Below, piece by piece: positions 4,835 through 35,128 of a stretch of 35,514 nt of DNA. The notes under the pieces were generated by a model. That model made no database searches. It saw only the letters and a list, made by a program, of their open reading frames with translations, and had not been told where the DNA came from. Source of the DNA: a virus (Duplodnaviria; Heunggongvirae; Uroviricota; Caudoviricetes); IMG/VR virus record IMGVR_UViG_2698536443_000010, positions 1 to 35,514 of that record; one strand, written 5' to 3'. Position numbers and translations under genes: made by a program. Within the stretch, counting starts at the first letter, position 1. The number at the start of each line of letters is the position of its first letter.

Positions 4835-7657
4835 ATGACGGCAGAGTACATCAGGGACTGGCAACAACCGCGCCACGCAGTGGGGCGTGAAGGAACGGGG
4901 ATCCCCGCTCCTGAATCCGCGCTTTCCTCCTGGCTGGATGCCCACCGGGCAGAGAACGAGCGCCGCCAGGAAATGGCTGATGCGGCGTTCTCCGCCACGC
5001 CACTGGGCAACCTGATTAATAAAAGCCTGGACGCACAGGAAAAACAGGACAAAACCATCACACTGGCAGGAGACGCCAGAAAACAGGCACGCGGCGCGGT
5101 GGATGAAGCCATGGCCTCGCTGCGCCTGCTGCCGTCCTATCTGCGCGATCCGCTTATTCGCCACCTCTCCTTCCTGCGCAAAAAACAGGAAGCCGATCGC
5201 CGGAAAGGCAAAAAGAGCTGGCAGGCGGAACGCTATGCACGCGGAACCCTGCGCAAAATATTCGAACGTCTGGATCGCACTGACGGACACTGGCTGACAC
5301 CGGGTTATCGCTCCCTTGCCGGACGCGAACGCCTGGACGATTTGCTTTACCTGCCGCAGCTCAACAAACACCAGATACAGACGCTGGCCACCATGACGGC
5401 GGCGATGTTCAGCAGCACCTTCGAAAAACTCTGCGATGGCTTTGGCGCGACCGATGGCGAACTGACCATGGATGTAACGCTGAAGGCGTATCAGATGCTG
5501 GCCCGCATGGCGTTACACCTGCACATCATGCCTCCACATTATGACGCACTGACAACAGATAAAGACCGGAGGAACGAACCGGACACGGAGCTGCTGCCGG
5601 GCACAATCCTTCGCCTGACCTGTGCGGAATGGTGGAAACGCAAACTGTGGCTGTTACGTTGCGAGTGGAGAGAAGAACAACTCCGCGCCGCCTGTCTGGT
5701 TTCCAGAAAAACATCACCCTATCTGAGCCAGGACGCGTTAAGCGAGTTTCGCGCACAGCGCGAGAAAACACGCGATTTCCTGAAAAGTTTCATGCTGGAA
5801 AATGAAGACGGGTTCACGATTGATCTCGAGACGGTGTATTACGCGGGAGTAAGTAACCCGGTTCACCGTAAAGCAGAAATGATGGCCACCATGAAGGGAC
5901 TGGAACTTCTGGCCGAAGCCCGTGGCGACAGAGCGGTGTTTCTGACCGTCACCTGCCCGTCAAAATACCACGCAACAACGGAGAACGGTCATCCGAACCC
6001 CAAATGGAACGGGGCCACCATGCGCGACTCCAGCGATTACCTGGTTAACACGTTTTTTGCGGCGGTCCGCAAGAAACTGAACCGCGACGGCCTGCGCTGG
6101 TATGGCATCCGCACGGTGGAGCCTCACCATGACGGCACCGTGCACTGGCATATGATGGTCTTTGCTCATCCGGAAGAAATCGACACCATTGTGTCCCACA
6201 CCCGCGATATTGCCATTCAGGAAGATCGTCACGAGCTGGGCGATGACATAACTCCGCGCTTTAAGGCGGAGTATGTAGACGGCTCAAAAGGCACGCCAAC
6301 CAGCTACATCGCCACCTACATCGGGAAAAACCTGGACAGCCGCGCCGTGGATGGCATCGACCCGAAAACGGGCAAGCCACGCGTTGACCACGAAACCGGA
6401 AAATCAATGGCCGAGAGCGTGGAACGCGCCATCGGCTGGGCGCGCCTTCACCGGGTCCGCCAGTTCCAGTTCTTTGGCATCCCCTCCCGCCAGGTATGGC
6501 GTGAACTGCGCCGCCTTGCCAGCCAGATGGCACGCAACCCGGAAGGCCCGCAACGGCTGAAGGATGACGCAATGGATGCGGTTCTTGCCGCCGCTGATGC
6601 CGGATGTTTTGCCACCTACATAGAGAAACAGGGCGGCGTACTTGTTCCACGCAAAGACTACCTGATTCGCACCGCCTACGACCTCGCCGATGAGCTGAAC
6701 GATTACGGCGAACAGAGCGTACAGATTTACGGGATCTGGTCACCACTCATCGGGGAATCCTCCCGTGTGTGCACGCATCCGGATAACTGGAAGCTGGTAA
6801 GACGCAAACCGGAAGCGGAAGACAGCGCCCGCGAAAATGGTTTTGACCTTCAGGGCGGCCCTGCCGCCCCTTGGACTCGTGGCAATAACTGTCCCCGTGT
6901 ACAGGAAACGGACAACAACGGGACAAAACAGCCGGAAGAACGGCCAGCACCGTGGCCGCAGCTCCCTGACGGCGTTGATGTGGATGAATGGATGCGCTCA
7001 CTGAAACGGCACGAACGCCGGGCGCTGATGCGTTCGCTTCGTGACAAACAGGCAAAAAACAGCAGTGATGAAATGCAGAGCTGGACACAGAGCCGCAAAC
7101 AGCAGCGGCCTTTGCCTGATAACCACGAATTACTCGCTAAAGAATGGCGGGAGTCTGCTGAATCTCTCGGTCTGCATATCGGTGAACAACAGATGCAGCA
7201 CCTGTTACGGGGCGGCAGTCTGTACGTTGACGGCAGCATCATTGCACCGCAGGGATTTGAAATTGTACGCAAACCGGATACCCGCCCGGACAGCCGAATC
7301 ACGCAGCTCTGGCAGCGCCTGAGCCGTAATCATGGCGTAAGCAGCACGGAGATCCGCCATAACCCGGTCGCCAGCTATCTGACACAGCTGGGGGCATCAG
7401 ACCCTGAAGCCGCCGCACGCCTGGCATCCACACTTCAGCAGGACCAGAACACCATGAAAACACCCGTTACCGTGCTTTCTGACATGCTGCGCGCCATCCG
7501 CGACGCAGAGCACGCACAGAGAATCAGTGAAACCACTGAACGCGCCAGCCGCAAAGCAGACCTGCTGCGGGGTGGCCTGACCAGTGGAAACAAAAAACAG
7601 ACAGAAACGGGACTCACGAATCCCGTAAATGAGCAAAAAACGCGCAGCGATATATGA
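4835..7657 (+). CDS. A: Replication initiation endonuclease, P2 gpA-like, with long C-terminal extension
   Basis: Central region FLTVTCPSKYHATTENGHPNPKWNG...RWYGIRTVEPHHDGTVHWHMMVFAHP...SYIATYIGKNLD typical of the P2 A rolling-circle initiator; 940 aa. Confidence 0.9.
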   Translation: MTAEYIRDWQQPRHAVGREGTGIPAPESALSSWLDAHRAENERRQEMADAAFSATPLGNLINKSLDAQEKQDKTITLAGDARKQARGAVDEAMASLRLLPSYLRDPLIRHLSFLRKKQEADRRKGKKSWQAERYARGTLRKIFERLDRTDGHWLTPGYRSLAGRERLDDLLYLPQLNKHQIQTLATMTAAMFSSTFEKLCDGFGATDGELTMDVTLKAYQMLARMALHLHIMPPHYDALTTDKDRRNEPDTELLPGTILRLTCAEWWKRKLWLLRCEWREEQLRAACLVSRKTSPYLSQDALSEFRAQREKTRDFLKSFMLENEDGFTIDLETVYYAGVSNPVHRKAEMMATMKGLELLAEARGDRAVFLTVTCPSKYHATTENGHPNPKWNGATMRDSSDYLVNTFFAAVRKKLNRDGLRWYGIRTVEPHHDGTVHWHMMVFAHPEEIDTIVSHTRDIAIQEDRHELGDDITPRFKAEYVDGSKGTPTSYIATYIGKNLDSRAVDGIDPKTGKPRVDHETGKSMAESVERAIGWARLHRVRQFQFFGIPSRQVWRELRRLASQMARNPEGPQRLKDDAMDAVLAAADAGCFATYIEKQGGVLVPRKDYLIRTAYDLADELNDYGEQSVQIYGIWSPLIGESSRVCTHPDNWKLVRRKPEAEDSARENGFDLQGGPAAPWTRGNNCPRVQETDNNGTKQPEERPAPWPQLPDGVDVDEWMRSLKRHERRALMRSLRDKQAKNSSDEMQSWTQSRKQQRPLPDNHELLAKEWRESAESLGLHIGEQQMQHLLRGGSLYVDGSIIAPQGFEIVRKPDTRPDSRITQLWQRLSRNHGVSSTEIRHNPVASYLTQLGASDPEAAARLASTLQQDQNTMKTPVTVLSDMLRAIRDAEHAQRISETTERASRKADLLRGGLTSGNKKQTETGLTNPVNEQKTRSDI
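7605..7629. repeat. 25-bp dyad-symmetric element, copy 1 (aaacgggactcacgaatcccgtaaa), inside the 3' end of A
   Basis: Arms acggga / tcccgt separated by 8 nt; 21/25 identical to copy 2. Confidence 0.7.
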
Positions 7658-7677
7658 AGCGCGCACAAAACAGGCAA

Positions 7678-7702
7678 AAACGGGATTTCAGAATCCCGTA
7701 AA
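7678..7702. repeat. 25-bp dyad-symmetric element, copy 2 (aaacgggatttcagaatcccgtaaa), upstream of parM-like gene
   Basis: Same dyad arms; lies 32 nt upstream of the parM-like start. Confidence 0.7.
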
Positions 7703-7733
7703 CGATTAATTAATCAACATAAGGAAAAGCGAC

Positions 7734-8693
7734 ATGAAAATTTGTATCGACGACGGCTCCACCAACATCAAGCTGGCATGGACTGAGAACGGCGAACGCC
7801 GCAACGCCATCAGCCCGAACAGCTTCAAGTCGGAATGGTCTGCGCCGTTCGGTGGCACGCAGCCCGCGAACTACATGCTTGATGGCGTGCGCTATGGTTT
7901 TGATCCGGTCAGCGATCGCTTTGTCCAGACGACCGACACGCAATACCAATACAGCGATGTGAATGTCATTGCCATTCATCACGCGCTGGTCAAATCAGGC
8001 ATCACACCACAGGAGGTGGATGTGGTTGTCACCCTGCCACTGAGCGAGTATTTCGACACAAACGCACAGCCGGACATGGCCAACATCAACCGCAAAAAAG
8101 CGAACGTTATGCGCCCGGTGGAGTACCAGAACGGCGAAGCATTCACTATCCGTAACGTGCGGGTTATGCCTGAATCCATTCCGGCTGGCTTTAAGGCACT
8201 GGCTGACATGAGTCCGTTTGAATCCCTGCTGATTGTGGATTTGGGCGGAACCACGCTGGATGTGGCAAAGGTTCAGGGGCAACTGGCAGGTATCAGCCAG
8301 GTGTTTTGCGATCCACACGTAGGCGTTTCTCTGATGGCCGATGCCGTACTGGCGGTGATGGCCACTAACGGTATGCGCACCAGTCACCACATCGCCAATA
8401 CCATTATCGAACATCGCCATGATGAAGCCTGGCTGCGCCAGCACATCCACAATGACGCGCATTACGCCAGCCTGATGGCGGTTATTCGTGAAAAGGAAGA
8501 AACACTGAAACAACGCGTGATCCGCGCGCTGGCGGTTTTTTCGGGTTACGGGCGGGTGATGGTTGTCGGTGGAGGGGCGGAGATTGTGGCACCCGCTATC
8601 CGCGAAGCCTGCGGAGTTAATGCGACTTTCATCGCGGACGGGGTGCCACAGTTTGCTCTGGTTAATGGGCTGTACGCAATGGACAAGGAGTAA
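7734..8693 (+). CDS. parM: Actin-like segregation ATPase, ParM/StbA family
   Basis: MKICIDDGSTNIKLAW...YSDVNVIAIHHAL...VMPESIPAG...LLIVDLGGTTLDV...VMVVGGGAEI matches conserved ParM blocks of plasmid R1 as recalled. Confidence 0.85.
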   Translation: MKICIDDGSTNIKLAWTENGERRNAISPNSFKSEWSAPFGGTQPANYMLDGVRYGFDPVSDRFVQTTDTQYQYSDVNVIAIHHALVKSGITPQEVDVVVTLPLSEYFDTNAQPDMANINRKKANVMRPVEYQNGEAFTIRNVRVMPESIPAGFKALADMSPFESLLIVDLGGTTLDVAKVQGQLAGISQVFCDPHVGVSLMADAVLAVMATNGMRTSHHIANTIIEHRHDEAWLRQHIHNDAHYASLMAVIREKEETLKQRVIRALAVFSGYGRVMVVGGGAEIVAPAIREACGVNATFIADGVPQFALVNGLYAMDKE

Positions 8694-8697
8694 ACCA

Positions 8698-9009
8698 ATG
8701 ACGACACCAACCAGACGGATAAGTTTCTATCTGAAGCCTGCGGCCGTCAAGAACGAAAGCGAAGCATGCGCCTGGCTGGACAGCCTTACACCAGAAGCCC
8801 GCAAAAGCGGCCAACGCGTGGCTTTTCTGGCCGGGCTGGCACTTCTGAAAATGAATCCAGCAGAGGCTTACCGACTGGCTGCATGGGCTGACGATGAGGC
8901 GTTATCAGTGACACAAACCAGGACAGAATGCCCCGCGTCACAGCCAGTATCAACCGCACAGATAACCAGTCAGATGGCCGGAAATATCCGGGCATTATTT
9001 CCCGAATAA
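8698..9009 (+). CDS. parR: ParR-like adaptor candidate
   Basis: Immediately downstream of parM with AAGGAG RBS; RRISFYLKP...AGLALL...RALFPE resembles R1 ParR as recalled. Confidence 0.55.
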   Translation: MTTPTRRISFYLKPAAVKNESEACAWLDSLTPEARKSGQRVAFLAGLALLKMNPAEAYRLAAWADDEALSVTQTRTECPASQPVSTAQITSQMAGNIRALFPE

Positions 9010-9014
9010 CACAA

Positions 9015-9038
9015 CATCAGGGCGCATCCGCCCTGATG
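9015..9038. terminator. Hairpin downstream of parR-like gene
   Basis: Inverted repeat atcagggcg / cgccctgat with 4-nt loop; weak T tract. Confidence 0.4.
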
Positions 9039-9107: not shown

Positions 9108-9326
9108 ATGAACAGAAAACAGAAACAAGAGTTGAAATACTTCTTACGTAAAGAAATTGCCAGGCTTGAAGATGCAGAGTCACAATCATCAGAAATTCCG
9201 TTCGGAATGGATATCAACGACGCCCGTATGCTTCAGGCATACCGTATAGCTCAGGCTGCACTACAGACAAAACCGTTAAATAACATACATGAAAAGTATG
9301 ATTATTTTACGGATACCGCTTGCTGA
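9108..9326 (+). CDS. Hypothetical protein
   Basis: 72-aa ORF in the A-to-cos accessory region. Confidence 0.4.
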   Translation: MNRKQKQELKYFLRKEIARLEDAESQSSEIPFGMDINDARMLQAYRIAQAALQTKPLNNIHEKYDYFTDTAC

Positions 9327-9511
9327 CATCTGAAGAACAAAAGATAGCCCAACTTTTAGGCGACGCATGGAACCTGTATTTAACATTGCCAGTTGAGCAT
9401 CCAATGGGTAGAGATGAATTTTGCCGGGCAATTCATCATTGCCAAAATATGATGTTGGCACGCCCGGCCATCAGGACGCTGGCCAGGAAGGGGCAAGGCT
9501 ATAAAAGATAA
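9320..9511 (+). CDS. Hypothetical protein
   Basis: 63-aa ORF; followed by a terminator hairpin. Confidence 0.35.
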   Translation: MLTSEEQKIAQLLGDAWNLYLTLPVEHPMGRDEFCRAIHHCQNMMLARPAIRTLARKGQGYKR

Positions 9512-23337: not shown

Positions 23338-23915
23338 TGACATTCAGAATGAGTGAACAATCACGGACCATAAAAATTTATAATCTACTGACCGGAACCA
23401 ATGAGTTTATTGGTGAAGGTGATGCATACATTCCACCTCATACAGGTCTGCCTGCAAACAGTACCGATATTGCCCCGCCAGATATTCCGGCTGGCTTCGT
23501 GGCCGTTTTCAACAGTGATGAGGCATCGTGGCATCTCGTTGAAGACCATCGGGGTAAAACGGTTTATGACGTGGCATCAGGGGACGCGTTATTTATTTCT
23601 GAACTCGGTCCGTTACCGGAAAATGTTACCTGGTTGTCGCCGTATGGAGAGTATCAGAAGTGGAACGGCACATCCTGGGTGAAAGATGCAGAAGCAGACA
23701 AACTATTTCGGATAAGGGAGGCGGAAGAAACAAAAAACAGCCTGATGCAGGTAGCCAGTGAGCATATTGCGCCACTTCAGGATGCCGTAGATTTGGATAT
23801 TGCGACGGAGGAAGAGGCATCGTTACTGGCTGCATGGAAGACATATCGGGTATTGTTGAATCGTGTTGATACAACAGTAGCAGCGGATGTTGAGTGGCCA
23901 GTCGCCCCACAATAA
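23337..23915 (+). CDS. G: Tail fibre assembly protein, P2 gpG-like (divergent N-terminus)
   Basis: C-terminal [12 protein letters not shown]...EWPVAPQ resembles the P2 G C-terminus; TAATG overlap with H. Confidence 0.75.
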
Positions 23916-23958: not shown

Positions 23959-24531
23959 CTATTTATACAATACAGCACCGCTCTTTTTAGTTATATATGT
24001 GCAGTTCGATGGTATATCTTTATTTATAAAAGACATTGCACCTATTTTTACATTATCCCCAATTTTACGGGATAATCCAATGATGCAACAATTAGCTCCG
24101 ATATCAACGTTGCTACCAATTTTTACTCTTGAACCAGGTATGTCACCATCTATCTGTCCAATGGTCGTATTCTGTCGTAACACCAGATTTTCACCAGCAT
24201 CAACAGCAAAATGAACAACAATTCCAGCATGATGGGGAATTGTTAACCCTTTTCCAATATTTGCGCCCAATCCAATTTCACAACCAAATTTGTTAATTAT
24301 TTTACTGTTTAACTTTTTGGCTGCTTTCTTATGTAATTTATTACCATTAATATACATTTCGTTAGCCAACCGCCACCAGAAAAGGAAATTCCGGTTACGC
24401 TGTTTTTTCTCTCTTAAAAGCCTCCAGATATCCATACGTTTCCGCCGAATTACTTCATATTTCCAGAAGTTTTTTAAATTAGTAGAGTTCCCAAATAAAA
24501 CAAAGTGAATTGCCATTAAGTAAGACAGCAC
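23959..24531 (-). CDS. Hexapeptide-repeat (left-handed beta-helix) acetyltransferase, CysE/O-acetyltransferase-like; AT-rich moron
   Basis: Isoleucine-patch repeats IGANIGKGLTIP...VKIGSNVDIGANCCIIG...KIGDNVKIGAMSFI; GTG start at 24531 after AAGGAG RBS (ORF extends to 24564; alternative ATG 24516). Confidence 0.7.
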   Translation of the reverse strand: MLSYLMAIHFVLFGNSTNLKNFWKYEVIRRKRMDIWRLLREKKQRNRNFLFWWRLANEMYINGNKLHKKAAKKLNSKIINKFGCEIGLGANIGKGLTIPHHAGIVVHFAVDAGENLVLRQNTTIGQIDGDIPGSRVKIGSNVDIGANCCIIGLSRKIGDNVKIGAMSFINKDIPSNCTYITKKSGAVLYK

Positions 24532-24687
24532 GATAATCTCCTTAATTATTATTTCAGACGACACATATTATAAGGTTAAGAGATTATAAAATCCTGTTGT
24601 TTGTTATTCAAAAACAATTTTCTGAGAAGGACATACAACAGCAAGTCGCCAGTCACCTTCATCAGGAAATTGGCGACATACGTTAAA

Positions 24688-31688: not shown

Positions 31689-32324
31689 TTAGCGAGCTAA
31701 TATATTCAAAGAATTTAACAATTGAGTGTCGAGTGTTTCAGTTGCAGGAATCGGTAATCCATTCGCAATGCGGTAATTTTTCACAGACAGCCTTGTGGAT
31801 GGCCCCATTATGCCGTCAATATTTCCGTTATAAAATCCCCTGTCCAGCAATGCGAACTGAACTCGCATAATCAATCGCTTACGTTTCTCTGCATCAGAAG
31901 CAAGCCCATTACTCGTACGGTTAACCTCTGAAGTTCCAACAGAACTCGTGTTAGTGGTTCTATTATTATCGTTAGAACGAAGTGCACGCACCGAGGAAGA
32001 GGACGATGAGGAACTTGCACCTGAACTTGAAGAACCAGATGAACGTGGTGAGCTGTATGTTTTTGGATAATAGGGGGTACTTCCACCATAGTATCCACCA
32101 CCTGATGAGGATCTATGAGAGCTATGGCTCCTATGAGAGCTATGGCTTCGATGCCCTGCGATATAAAATGGGACTTCCGTGTTAAGTGGAGCTATCACTA
32201 AATCATGCTCATTAAGAGTCATACCAGGTAAATCACTCGCTCCTGTAGATGAATCGCTTGCCCATACAGAATTGTTGAGAGCCAAAAATCCCGGAAGTAG
32301 AGCAGCAAAATTAAACTTTTTCAT
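31689..32324 (-). CDS. hxsA: His-Xaa-Ser repeat protein (HxsA-like): signal peptide, HRS/HSS repeat tract, Ser/Gly-rich linker, peptidoglycan-binding-like C-terminal domain
   Basis: MKKFNFAALLPGFLALNNSVWA signal peptide; HRSHSSHRSHSSHRS; C-terminal LIMRVQFALLDRGFYNGNIDGIMGPSTRLSVKNYRIANGLP; ATGA overlap with upstream radical-SAM gene. Confidence 0.7.
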   Translation of the reverse strand: MKKFNFAALLPGFLALNNSVWASDSSTGASDLPGMTLNEHDLVIAPLNTEVPFYIAGHRSHSSHRSHSSHRSSSGGGYYGGSTPYYPKTYSSPRSSGSSSSGASSSSSSSSVRALRSNDNNRTTNTSSVGTSEVNRTSNGLASDAEKRKRLIMRVQFALLDRGFYNGNIDGIMGPSTRLSVKNYRIANGLPIPATETLDTQLLNSLNILAR

Positions 32325-33433
32325 AAAATTGGTCTCGGTGATTGATGAAAACGGCCTTTTGAGGAACTGAAATAGCCAGCACAGGAAGGCTTCTGAGTAC
32401 ATTCATCACATTCTTTTGGATAGTAATTTTTCCAATCAGAGATCGACTGAACAGCAAGCTCCCTAGCCCTTTCAGGAAGATAACACAAAGGATAATTAAA
32501 AATTGTCAGAGGTATGCCTGACCTGTATGCAGCGTCTATGGCAGAGATTATTTTCTCACTATAACTACTGTGATCAATGAAGATGGTGGACCAGTTTTTT
32601 CGTGCCCAACCGATAGGCTCCAACCCCATAAGGGAAATCTGATTGATGTTGGAGAACACACGGCCAGCGAATTCTACAATATCATCCAATTCGGTATAGT
32701 TAGCCAGTGTAGGAATAACTCTAAGTTCGATATTAATCCCCAAGTTTCCTGCATTGATTAACCCTTTAACCGTTTCATTAAATGCGCCATCACTCCCTAC
32801 CAGATGATCATGCACAAGTGGTCTTGATGAGTAGAGCGGGATACCAAAGGTGATTTTGATCTTTTTGCTTCGCTTTGCCATTTCCTGTGTAAAGTTGATA
32901 TCAGCAAATTTGCGTCCGTTTGTTAAAACATGTAAAGCAGTATCTGGTGAATTCTCGATGATAAAATCAATGAAGTGAAGGAAGTCATCCCCATATAGCA
33001 AAGGTTCACCACCGCTGACCCCAACAACTCCGTTCAAGCCAAATGAAGCTATAGCAAGAGCTGATTGGGTAAGTAGCCAGTCATCATTTATTTTCTTTGG
33101 TGGCTGCGAACAAAACAGACACAAGTTATTGCAGCGTTCCGTAACTAAGACAGTATTATGATTGGCTTTGCGTGACAGAATAACGCGTATCATATTGCCA
33201 TTGTTGATTATCCCAATATCTCCATCTTCAATTGACTCAAATAATTCAGTGCTAATAACAGAGAAATCAAAGCATGGTGGAATGGCATCATTATTGCCTT
33301 CAGCAACTACTAGCAAATTGGGCAAAAAGAATAAAGGGTTCACTGGTTTTTGTTTGCATAACCGATAGAACCCCGTGGGCACGTTCTCTGTAGAAGCAAA
33401 ATGAAAGATATCGTTCCTGATAACCTCAGACAT
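32321..33433 (-). CDS. hxsB: Radical SAM enzyme with SPASM-like C-terminus (HxsB-like maturase; B/C assignment tentative)
   Basis: CNNLCLFC (CX3CX2C), GGEPLL motif, C-terminal Cys cluster CDECTQKPSCAGYF. Confidence 0.75.
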   Translation of the reverse strand: MSEVIRNDIFHFASTENVPTGFYRLCKQKPVNPLFFLPNLLVVAEGNNDAIPPCFDFSVISTELFESIEDGDIGIINNGNMIRVILSRKANHNTVLVTERCNNLCLFCSQPPKKINDDWLLTQSALAIASFGLNGVVGVSGGEPLLYGDDFLHFIDFIIENSPDTALHVLTNGRKFADINFTQEMAKRSKKIKITFGIPLYSSRPLVHDHLVGSDGAFNETVKGLINAGNLGINIELRVIPTLANYTELDDIVEFAGRVFSNINQISLMGLEPIGWARKNWSTIFIDHSSYSEKIISAIDAAYRSGIPLTIFNYPLCYLPERARELAVQSISDWKNYYPKECDECTQKPSCAGYFSSSKGRFHQSPRPIL

Positions 33434-34814
33434 ATGCCCATCCTTTTAGCATCTCAGCCTTCGAACCACCCTCTGAGATGCAGTTCATCAGATACCTGAA
33501 CATCCCCTTGTGATATTGACAAAACGTTGAACGACTCCTATCACCGACAGGCTCACCCTGTACACTTATGTTCTGGCATGGATCTGAACCACAAAATGGT
33601 TGATATGCACATGTATCACAACCTGGCAGAGCAAAATTGAACGATGAACTCAATACTGCGTTATAGTAAGGACTATCAGAAAATGATAGCGTCTTAACTT
33701 CACCCGCACTGAACTCCGTTTCAGGATTCACCTTCTGCAACATACGGCTCTCATCGCTACCATATACTCGACCGTCATAATTGAAAAGAATACTGTTAAG
33801 CACGACTCCACTTGGAGACTTTAAATCCGCATAACCACTAAAACCGGGATTGAAGATCCTTTTCAGATGAATGGAGGCCGAATGTTCCACAACCCTTATC
33901 CCTTCATTATTAATCTTAAGGATTTCATCTATCAACGAGGCATAGAAGCTGAAGTATTCGTCCATAGAAAAGGTGAAAGAAGCTTTTTGTGCAAACCCAT
34001 AGGGACTAACAGGTCGGATAAACATGTCCTTGAGACCAAGAGACAAGTGAGCCTGAACAATCGATTCAGGACGTTTGATAAGCTCTTTAGTAACTGTAGT
34101 AACCGTTGCAACGCGGCCAGCACCTAAAGAGTGTTTGATAGCCTCTACCCCTGACACTGTTCTACTGTACGCAAGCCCACGACCAAGAATTCGATTACTG
34201 TTGTGAACAACTTCCTCACCATCAAGCGACACAGAGAACGTTATGTTCCGGTCTCTCGACCATTCAATCATATCCTCATTCAAGACGGACAGACTTGATG
34301 CCACCACCATCTCAAAATTGGTTCTTCCCAGCGTTTCAGCACATTGATCATAGATGCTCTGAATTAAATCAAACCGCAAGAGAGGCTCCCCACCCTGTAT
34401 CTCTATTTTGTAAGGTGGCGTTGATAGTTTTTTAATAGCCGAAATAATATCGGGGATGAGCTCAGGATTTAGGTCGTAACCTGAGGCATTAACAGAAGCT
34501 CTACTAACCTGGCAATACTTGCATGTATGGTCACAACGTAATGTGGGTACAATCATGAAAATTGGCCTGACAGCCAGTTCATTCATCAATCGTTTTGCAA
34601 AAGCAGAACTTAAAGCATAGGGAGTTATAGCAGATGAGCTTTCACTGGTTATGAAAAGCTTACTTTCTAGCACGTTTGATTGCTCCGAACTAATTCGCTC
34701 ATCAGAAAGATCAATAAGGTCTTGCTCACCAATGAAATGATGAAAACCTGCAAGGTTGCTTATAAACACCTGTCCATTAGGCAATCTGTCAAAATTAAAT
34801 GGCATCAATTCCAT
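33426..34814 (-). CDS. hxsC: Radical SAM enzyme with SPASM-like C-terminus (HxsC-like maturase; B/C assignment tentative)
   Basis: CDHTCKYC (CX3CX2C), GGEPLL motif, C-terminal CDTCAYQPFCGSDPC. Confidence 0.75.
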   Translation of the reverse strand: MELMPFNFDRLPNGQVFISNLAGFHHFIGEQDLIDLSDERISSEQSNVLESKLFITSESSSAITPYALSSAFAKRLMNELAVRPIFMIVPTLRCDHTCKYCQVSRASVNASGYDLNPELIPDIISAIKKLSTPPYKIEIQGGEPLLRFDLIQSIYDQCAETLGRTNFEMVVASSLSVLNEDMIEWSRDRNITFSVSLDGEEVVHNSNRILGRGLAYSRTVSGVEAIKHSLGAGRVATVTTVTKELIKRPESIVQAHLSLGLKDMFIRPVSPYGFAQKASFTFSMDEYFSFYASLIDEILKINNEGIRVVEHSASIHLKRIFNPGFSGYADLKSPSGVVLNSILFNYDGRVYGSDESRMLQKVNPETEFSAGEVKTLSFSDSPYYNAVLSSSFNFALPGCDTCAYQPFCGSDPCQNISVQGEPVGDRSRSTFCQYHKGMFRYLMNCISEGGSKAEMLKGWAYV

Positions 34815-35128
34815 TATGAAAGCCTCTCATCAACACTGCGAAGCACTTTATGGACAATAGAGTCTCTCAACGCCCCTGTTTTATGCTGTAGCTTTTCTCG
34901 CAAAGAGTAATCATTAAGCAGCCTATCGAATTCATAAAGGAATTTGGGATTATCGTTTTCAAAAGAGATTATCCAGTGGGAAACGTCTTCATGGAGTTTC
35001 CATCGAGTAAGCGGAGTCATCCAATATAGACTATTGCGTATAACCCATTCAGAATATAGTTCTTTCTCAAACACTCTTTCGCTCATTGCAATTATCTTCC
35101 AATACAAATATTCATGATCAGCAACCAC
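34814..35128 (-). CDS. hxsD: HxsD-like small protein with LLNDYSLRE motif
   Basis: FDRLLNDYSLREKLQ matches the LLNDYxLRE signature; first gene of the operon; start uncertain (GTG 35128 or ATG 35086). Confidence 0.65.
   Translation of the reverse strand: MVADHEYLYWKIIAMSERVFEKELYSEWVIRNSLYWMTPLTRWKLHEDVSHWIISFENDNPKFLYEFDRLLNDYSLREKLQHKTGALRDSIVHKVLRSVDERLS

Follow-up and report, generated by a model that had tools for sequence, protein, structure and literature searches.

A conserved ParM/ParR gene pair beside the replication gene of P88-like prophages of Escherichia coli

The stretch of DNA analysed here, referred to below as the window, comprises all 35,514 nucleotides (nt) of the virus record IMGVR_UViG_2698536443_000010 and is an integrated P2-like, P88-like (Xuanwuvirus) prophage of Escherichia coli. 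Downstream of its replication gene, gpA, the prophage carries two genes, parM and parR, whose products clearly belong to the ParM and ParR families of actin-type (type II) partition proteins. ParMRC, consisting of the filament protein ParM, the adaptor ParR and the centromere parC, is the textbook plasmid spindle, and the carrier found here is an unusual one, with precedents. Our analyses show that parMR is an old and conserved companion of the P2-type replication gene, not accessory cargo. Whether the locus is a functional ParMRC of the early or replication module, one that would act on extrachromosomal phage circles and separate and position them in the manner of the AlpAC system of prophage CGP3, is a proposal to which we give roughly an even chance.

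A ParM and ParR pair in an integrated P2-like prophage

A 2.2-kb query from the window gave 100% identity to the E. coli chromosome NZ_CP074961, while phage P88 (Xuanwuvirus, Peduoviridae) and its relatives stand at 97 to 98%. In NZ_CP074961 the prophage is inserted between btuC and ihfA and encodes a tyrosine integrase, in agreement with the original prediction of a type II pair in a P2-like prophage that integrates via Int. The RefSeq gene order starts with the integrase, repressor and cox-type regulators, small early genes and the replication endonuclease gpA, and continues after gpA with ParM, ParR, a hypothetical gene, the portal, the terminase and the P2-type structural genes. The rolling-circle initiator gpA (positions 4835 to 7657, plus strand) was assigned from the annotation of the identical RefSeq locus and from relatives with the Pfam domain Phage_GPA. 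It is 940 amino acids (aa) long here and 785 to 907 aa in other parMR-carrying P2-like prophages. The right end of the window falls inside ogr, with attR beyond it, and no att direct repeats turned up when the window was searched for them.

The gene parM (7734 to 8693, plus strand) encodes a predicted actin-fold, filament-forming ATPase of 319 aa. Its identification as ParM, proposed earlier from conserved sequence blocks, was upheld by a hidden Markov model (HMM) search, in which the Pfam domains StbA_N (E 1.8e-82; 275 bits, cutoff 24.6) and the ParM C-terminal domain (E 1e-68) together covered the full length. The protein also matched PHROG 691, 'partition protein' (3e-90), and the crystal structures of R1 ParM (1mwk; E 1.5e-92, residues 2 to 316). 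Sequence identity is 47% to R1 ParM and 52 to 53% to the ParMs of IncI, IncFIA and IncL-M plasmids. In NCBIfam the ParM match was below threshold (best 22 bits, cutoff 215) and ParR had no match.

All of the nucleotide-binding elements are kept, namely the phosphate-1 motif DDGSTN (residues 6 to 11), E147, D169-x-GGTT and GGGA (279 to 282). Alignment with the R1-type and three other plasmid ParMs showed that D6, D7, G8-S9-T10, E147, D169, G171-G172-T173-T174 and G279-G281 are invariant. E147 and D169 correspond to E148 and D170 of R1 ParM, the residues used for hydrolysis-deficient mutants. Nothing in the sequence suggests degeneration of ParM. In a neighbour-joining tree, built without bootstrap, the prophage ParMs formed two basal groups apart from the plasmid ParMs. 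Other chromosomal ParM homologues were located in an integrative and conjugative element (ICE) or an integrated plasmid. A parM with flanks at 98% identity was also seen on a 226-kb contig labelled as the Gram-positive 'Vagococcus sp.' (NZ_JBQPOM010000071.1); most probably the assembly is mislabelled or the contig is contamination from an enterobacterium.

The second gene, parR (8698 to 9009, plus strand), starts at an internal ATG of the open reading frame (ORF) 8563 to 9009 and encodes a predicted adaptor protein of 103 aa. Here, too, the HMM search bore out the earlier assignment, with a match to Pfam Plasmid_stab_B (E 1.7e-24; 85.9 bits, cutoff 25), and the protein matched PHROG 2515, 'partition protein' (1.5e-57). 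Chance could not produce family scores of this size for either protein. ParR has three parts: a conserved N-terminal region (MTTPTRRISFYLKP and two predicted helices), a hypervariable linker and a conserved C-terminal motif. The C-terminal motif, (K/G)NI(R/Q)xxFPE, is kept in 29 of 29 alleles and reads NIRALFPE in the window. An early impression that ParR has no C-terminal ParM-binding tail was overturned by alignment, in which the NIxxLFP motif lines up with the C-termini of plasmid ParRs and N96 is invariant. In R1 ParR, the corresponding part binds ParM.

As a single sequence ParR matched no solved structure, while a profile containing the phage ParR (A3) matched the pB171 ParR structure 2JD3 (1.2e-15). 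The AlphaFold2 monomer has a low pLDDT (57.6), with residues 1 to 14 disordered, and its Foldseek matches are meaningless. In this low-confidence model the helices at residues 20 to 29 and 32 to 52 fit a strand-helix-helix arrangement and residues 86 to 100 are predicted to be helical, and the ribbon-helix-helix fold is a putative assignment. ParR varies far more than ParM, with 51 distinct proteins in 80 loci that fall into two main classes 52 to 56% identical to each other. All of the alleles are paired with a near-identical ParM and the same upstream palindromes, and they have the first 18 and the last 8 residues in common, the linker being hypervariable. Relaxed constraint could account for this diversity, as could the avoidance of cross-talk among prophages that share a cell.

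Purifying selection on both proteins

Selection was estimated by the pairwise Nei-Gojobori method as the ratio of nonsynonymous to synonymous substitution rates (dN/dS), using 50 to 68 relatives. ParM is under strong purifying selection, with a dN/dS of 0.07 against 0.13 for gpA. For ParR the ratio differs by region, at 0.13 in the N-terminal domain, 0.53 in the linker and 0.07 to 0.09 in the C-terminal tail, which is the pattern expected of a working DNA-binder with a flexible linker and a ParM-binding tail.

These values rule out a decaying remnant. It might be supposed that parMR is a non-functional leftover of an old recombination between plasmid and phage that hitch-hikes beside gpA, given that the pair is sometimes deleted or truncated and that the candidate centromere is minimal, with two sites only. 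However, the selection analysis, in which ParM is more constrained than gpA and ParR shows its domain-specific pattern, effectively refutes this explanation, and it is hardly credible in view of 68 intact copies, the preservation of all catalytic motifs and retention across genera at 54 to 63% identity.

A conserved replication block with a hotspot downstream of parR

The conservation of the locus was assessed in 80 IMG/VR loci encoding a P88-type gpA, with spacer and core counts made on 74 of them. An intact 319-aa ParM is present in 68 related IMG/VR loci, and the distance from the gpA stop to the parM start is 76 nt in 65 of the 74. In contrast, at least 12 types of sequence occur right after the parR stop, and the distance from parR to the portal gene ranges from 991 to 4167 nt. 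The fixed spacer and the variability after parR place the start of the hotspot downstream of parR, and parMR itself in a conserved replication block. This, together with the lack of PADLOC matches, is contrary to the earlier view of the pair as cargo of a hotspot between gpA and cos.

In complete E. coli genomes, parM (at least 80% present) was found in 1279 of 5426, approximately a quarter, with up to three copies per genome. P88-type gpA occurs in 1328 complete E. coli genomes, and parM stands alongside it in approximately 96%. A scan of genome contigs with ParM returned three near-identical loci, and the divergent relatives came instead from a protein search and contig look-ups. The order gpA, parM, parR, variable cargo, portal is kept in P2-like prophages from at least four other genera (Plesiomonas, Hafnia, Serratia and Enterobacter), where ParM is 54 to 63% identical to that of the window and the downstream cargo is HicAB or a KAP NTPase. 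The genes are also already annotated in RefSeq, in GenBank phage records and in PHROGs. To call such a pair unexpected in a P2-like phage, as the original prediction did, was therefore an overstatement.

The variable interval is also where a further reading finds its support. parMR could be an accessory expressed in the lysogen, acting in trans through partition incompatibility or the exclusion of plasmids or of co-resident or superinfecting P88-like phages, or through an effect on host fitness. The interval from gpA to cos carries defence or addiction cargo in relatives (HicAB, KAP NTPase, Fic/Doc-like), there are several ParR alleles with a common DNA-reading strand and up to three parM copies per genome, and ORF35 of PhiSM, a member of the P88-like group, has been listed as a fitness cargo gene (PMC6456863). 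We nevertheless consider this reading very unlikely. A PADLOC defence search gave no match for parMR, which argues against a known defence system, and the pair is fixed beside gpA and conserved across genera. The palindromes described below occur nowhere else in the window. Moreover, tblastn at E 1e-3 did not detect ParR on genuine plasmids, which makes a parC shared with them unlikely.

Beyond parR, at 9108 to 9511, the window has two small ORFs (72 and 63 aa) that represent a frameshifted copy of one 135-aa gene. The window lacks 4 nt, one GCTT of a GCTTGCTT repeat, which pZ1323PEC0009-2 and the majority of E. coli copies have. The latter half of the gene matches PHROG 13916, which is labelled 'DNA ligase'.

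A candidate centromere straddling the gpA stop

Upstream repeats had been noted before, and repeat comparison resolved them into two 42-nt direct-repeat units, each with a 20-bp palindrome, which form a candidate centromere/operator parC (7591 to 7705; units at 7591 to 7632 and 7664 to 7705). The units are 81% alike and lie 73 nt apart, start to start. Candidate site 1 (7607 to 7626) is the palindrome ACGGGAcT-CACG-AATCCCGT and lies in the last codons at the 3' end of gpA. Candidate site 2 (7680 to 7699) is a perfect palindrome, ACGGGATT-TCAG-AATCCCGT, located 35 nt upstream of the parM ATG. The pattern ACGGGAyT-N4-AATCCCGT occurs at these two places only in the window, against a chance expectation of 0.15, and none of 100 shuffles had as many. 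In addition, AAAC[AG] has seven copies within 7588 to 7700, compared with three per kb in the window.

Nearly all of the 74 P88-like loci scored retain the GGGATT/AATCC core; where they vary, it is mostly at the outermost base or within the 4-nt spacer. Exactly two GGG-N10-CCC sites precede the parM start in the window (-125 and -52) and in the prophages of Plesiomonas (-131 and -59) and Hafnia (-128 and -55), whose ParMs are 62 to 63% identical to that of the window. In each case the pair is 72 to 73 bp apart, and the background density of such sites is 0.1 to 0.4 per kb. The three ParRs have in common the strand TRR[IV]SFYL, whereas the ParRs of Serratia and Enterobacter carry NRKISFYL and are preceded by a different inverted repeat of 14 to 20 nt. 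This co-variation of strand and site is the pattern expected if ParR reads the sites, and it points to the palindromes at 7607 to 7699 as a candidate parC that ParR would recognise.

Two further features were seen at site 1. A common C-to-T variant in the gpA tail perfects the palindrome but turns a Leu into Phe, a trade-off that points to constraint on the DNA itself. A 19-nt stretch beside the site (7587 to 7605) is repeated with 89% identity at 23727 to 23745, within the IS009 match described below, probably by chance.

Expression and a proposed mode of action

parMR lies on the same strand as gpA, and a simple consensus scan of the gpA-parM interval found no sigma-70-like promoter and no plus-strand terminator. 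This arrangement suggests co-transcription with gpA, in which case parMR would be the last genes of the early operon and would be made together with gpA. Right after the parR stop there is a hairpin (9015 to 9038) with a 10-pair stem (-18.4 kcal/mol, z = -5.1). It is listed as terminator-like on the minus strand, homology among the relatives stops there, and it is a probable terminator or RNA-end hairpin.

In the mode of action that we propose, ParR dimers would occupy the two GGG-N10-CCC palindromes, one on either side of the gpA stop, and the conserved C-terminal tail of ParR would capture the ends of ATP-bound ParM filaments. The growing filaments would then push copies of the phage genome apart. 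Replication of P2 proceeds by a gpA-initiated rolling circle to monomeric circles, the packaging substrate, and such circles would provide a plasmid-like population of molecules for ParMRC to act on. parMR would be made only with extrachromosomal circular replication, whether after infection or on excision, and would be silent in the integrated state. The most likely payoff would be that replicating circles are separated and positioned, with better replication and packaging as a result, as AlpAC achieves for CGP3. A by-product could be a copy for both daughter cells if division precedes lysis or integration.

Chromosomal and circular records

A plasmid-like lifestyle had been suggested for the element, and the locations of parM speak against a habitual one. 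In complete E. coli genomes 1441 of the 1443 places with parM are chromosomal and two are on plasmids. PLSDB, with 72,556 plasmids, holds one intact phage-sized circular record, NZ_CP148288, which has 34,461 bp and is typed as a non-mobilisable plasmid. In a different strain, NZ_CP148378, this phage is integrated, at 100% identity. Neither the complete E. coli genomes nor PLSDB gave evidence for a plasmid lifestyle of P88-like phages.

The search for an episomal form recovered this one circular record of 34.4 kb, but such a record is not specific to parMR. Plasmid pENTAS02 of Enterobacter soli (NC_015969.1, 32.6 kb) is a complete P2-like phage with an integrase, deposited as a circular plasmid, and has no parMR between gpA and the portal gene. 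For this reason the 34.4-kb record was rejected as a specific sign of parMR-dependent maintenance. pENTAS02 may itself be an excised or episomal P2-like phage and is a useful control.

These records bear on the idea that parMRC is a safety net for episome inheritance, which would guard an unintegrated or excised circle from loss at cell division, either between infection or excision and (re)integration or in a carrier or pseudolysogenic state. We regard this as possible, though on balance doubtful. gpA and parMRC do lie together as one contiguous, plasmid-like cassette, and a single phage is found both integrated (NZ_CP148378) and as a circular replicon (NZ_CP148288). There is a direct analogy with srpMRC of the SXT/R391 elements (PMC4489591), and a carrier state without integration has been described for a P2-like phage, although partition genes are not mentioned there (PMC10321612). 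On the other hand, if parMR is expressed in the early lytic phase only, the cell is normally committed to lysis and inheritance would be moot. The circular form is matched by the parMR-less pENTAS02, and all but two of the 1443 parM places are chromosomal.

A facultative phage-plasmid would go further. The element would persist over the long term as a low-copy plasmid, for example in hosts without a usable attB, with replication from gpA and ori and partition by parMRC. The complete circular 34,461-bp record typed as a plasmid fits this picture, as does the plasmid prophage D6, which uses a homologous StbA-type ParM (47.8% identical). Yet it is one intact circular record in 72,556 plasmids against more than 1400 chromosomal copies, and we find the idea highly improbable. 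Rolling-circle replication by gpA is a lytic-type mode that is not known to be copy-controlled, and this counts against stable plasmid maintenance. The phages also keep int, cox and the repressor, and PhiSM forms ordinary integrated lysogens (PMC6456863).

Comparison with known segregation systems

No experimental work on parMR of P88-like phages was found in the literature, and partition genes go unmentioned in a 2026 survey of P2-like viruses. Comparison was made with characterised systems. One of the closest is the group of ParMRC (StbA/StbB/parC) systems of plasmids such as R1, pB171, IncI, IncL/M and IncFIA, with which the phage locus has in common full-length ParM homology, all nucleotide-binding motifs, the order parC, parM, parR, the Pfam family of ParR and an aligned C-terminal motif. 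It differs from them in its carrier, an integrating tailed phage and not a low-copy plasmid, in a shorter ParR (103 aa against 117 to 147 aa) that is too diverged for tblastn to find on real plasmids, and in having no clear autoregulated promoter. Type II systems are expected on autonomously replicating low-copy carriers and the element here is integrated, a departure that concerns the carrier and not the proteins.

Precedents for normally integrated carriers come from two systems. srpMRC stabilises the excised, rolling-circle-replicating ICE R391 and reduces its loss, and it is co-expressed with int (PMC4489591). Like parMRC, it is a type II actin-type locus on a normally integrated element whose excised form has a rolling-circle initiator; it is conserved family-wide, with a centromere upstream of the M gene (PMC4489591). 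Unlike parMRC, it belongs to an ICE and not a phage, and its activity has been established by experiment, whereas the phage module is known from its sequence (PMC4489591). SrpM and SrpR are only distantly related to R1 ParM and ParR (PMC4489591), whereas the phage ParM is a close R1 homologue; the comparison is a functional one only.

A phage parallel to the proposed mode of action is AlpAC (AlpC/AlpA/alpS) of the integrated Corynebacterium glutamicum prophage CGP3; it is induced early and binds sites upstream of its own operon, and the phage requires it to replicate efficiently (PMC4446434). As in the window, a prophage encodes an actin-like filament protein and a DNA-binding adaptor, which in CGP3 are co-transcribed, with adaptor sites in the upstream region of the operon, and AlpAC acts on circular phage DNA (PMC4446434, PMC5539076). 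This likeness is again functional only. AlpC belongs to another actin-like family, the host phylum is different, the phage is unrelated and the adaptor gene precedes the filament gene. The StbA-type ParM of the P1-like plasmid prophage D6 is phage-borne and of the same family; however, D6 is maintained as a plasmid, where partition is expected, and its ParM is no closer to that of the window than the plasmid ParMs are.

Points that weigh against a working ParMRC

Several observations count against a functional ParMRC devoted to extrachromosomal circles. The first group concerns the centromere. R1 parC has ten 11-bp iterons, arranged as two blocks of direct iterons that flank a TTGACA promoter, whereas the phage has two 20-bp palindromes 73 bp apart. 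With only two sites, both palindromic, the assembly of a filament-capping ParR ring is questionable. The support for the sites as parC comes from just three genera, and within the P88 group, where divergence is low, the palindrome arms and their flanks did not differ significantly in conservation. The palindromes also resemble minus-strand terminators. As for ParR, its 103 aa compare with 116 to 147 aa in prophage and plasmid relatives, and part of the region after helix 2 is missing.

A second group concerns expression and benefit. The absence of a promoter is the negative result of a simple consensus scan. Between site 2 and the ribosome-binding site lies a conserved ATTAATCAA box, which could belong to a weak promoter autoregulated by ParR, and in that case parMR could be expressed in lysogens. 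The lytic cycle is short, and it is not obvious that segregation would pay within it. Furthermore, parMR is lost or truncated in approximately 8 of 76 loci (two replacements and approximately six truncations), which indicates that it is not essential for prophage persistence. In one replacement (locus L039, 8836 to 9800) a Fic/Doc-like toxin-antitoxin pair stands in place of parMR and the first 17 parM codons are left; in the other (L086, 9763 to 11350) the place is taken by a 454-aa KAP-NTPase-like gene and the gpA C-terminus is trimmed. More generally, the case for a working ParMRC is drawn from sequence throughout.

Other features of the window

The sole Rfam match in the window is IS009 (RF02111; 23680 to 23878, plus strand; 188 bits, gathering score 117), where the tail-fibre assembly gene region ends. 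After the tail-fibre assembly gene, in a low-GC patch (approximately 40%), the minus strand carries a serine-acetyltransferase or hexapeptide-transferase gene (23959 to 24564), probably a moron, whether serotype-converting or of another kind. Between gpD and ogr, a low-GC block (31689 to 35128, minus strand) encodes a His-Xaa-Ser system, hxsA/C/B/D, as the cargo of a second site at which the prophage is variable. Its two radical-SAM maturases gave weak pVip-like PADLOC matches. A hok/gef gene follows ogr, just beyond the window.

Implications

The presence of parMR raises the question of why a chromosomally inherited and very common temperate phage family should keep a segregation motor, a question that can be answered by genetics. 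The answer would separate positioning of circles as in CGP3 from the guarding of an excised or unintegrated episome as in SXT/R391. The two palindromes and the 103-aa ParR also offer a candidate for a natural minimal centromere for mechanistic work. For annotation, parMR in E. coli prophages should not be read as a sign of a plasmid or as 'fitness cargo', and this caution covers Shiga toxin-producing E. coli strains such as O157:H7 JEONG-1266 and O26:H11 11368.

A bolder possibility, which we think unlikely, is that P2-like phages with gpA-parMRC pass regularly through an overlooked plasmid-like phase, as facultative phage-plasmids or in a carrier state, or that ParM filaments organise a zone of replication and packaging in E. 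coli. If the plasmid-like phase were true, a circle replicated by gpA would be actively partitioned by a minimal, two-site ParMRC.

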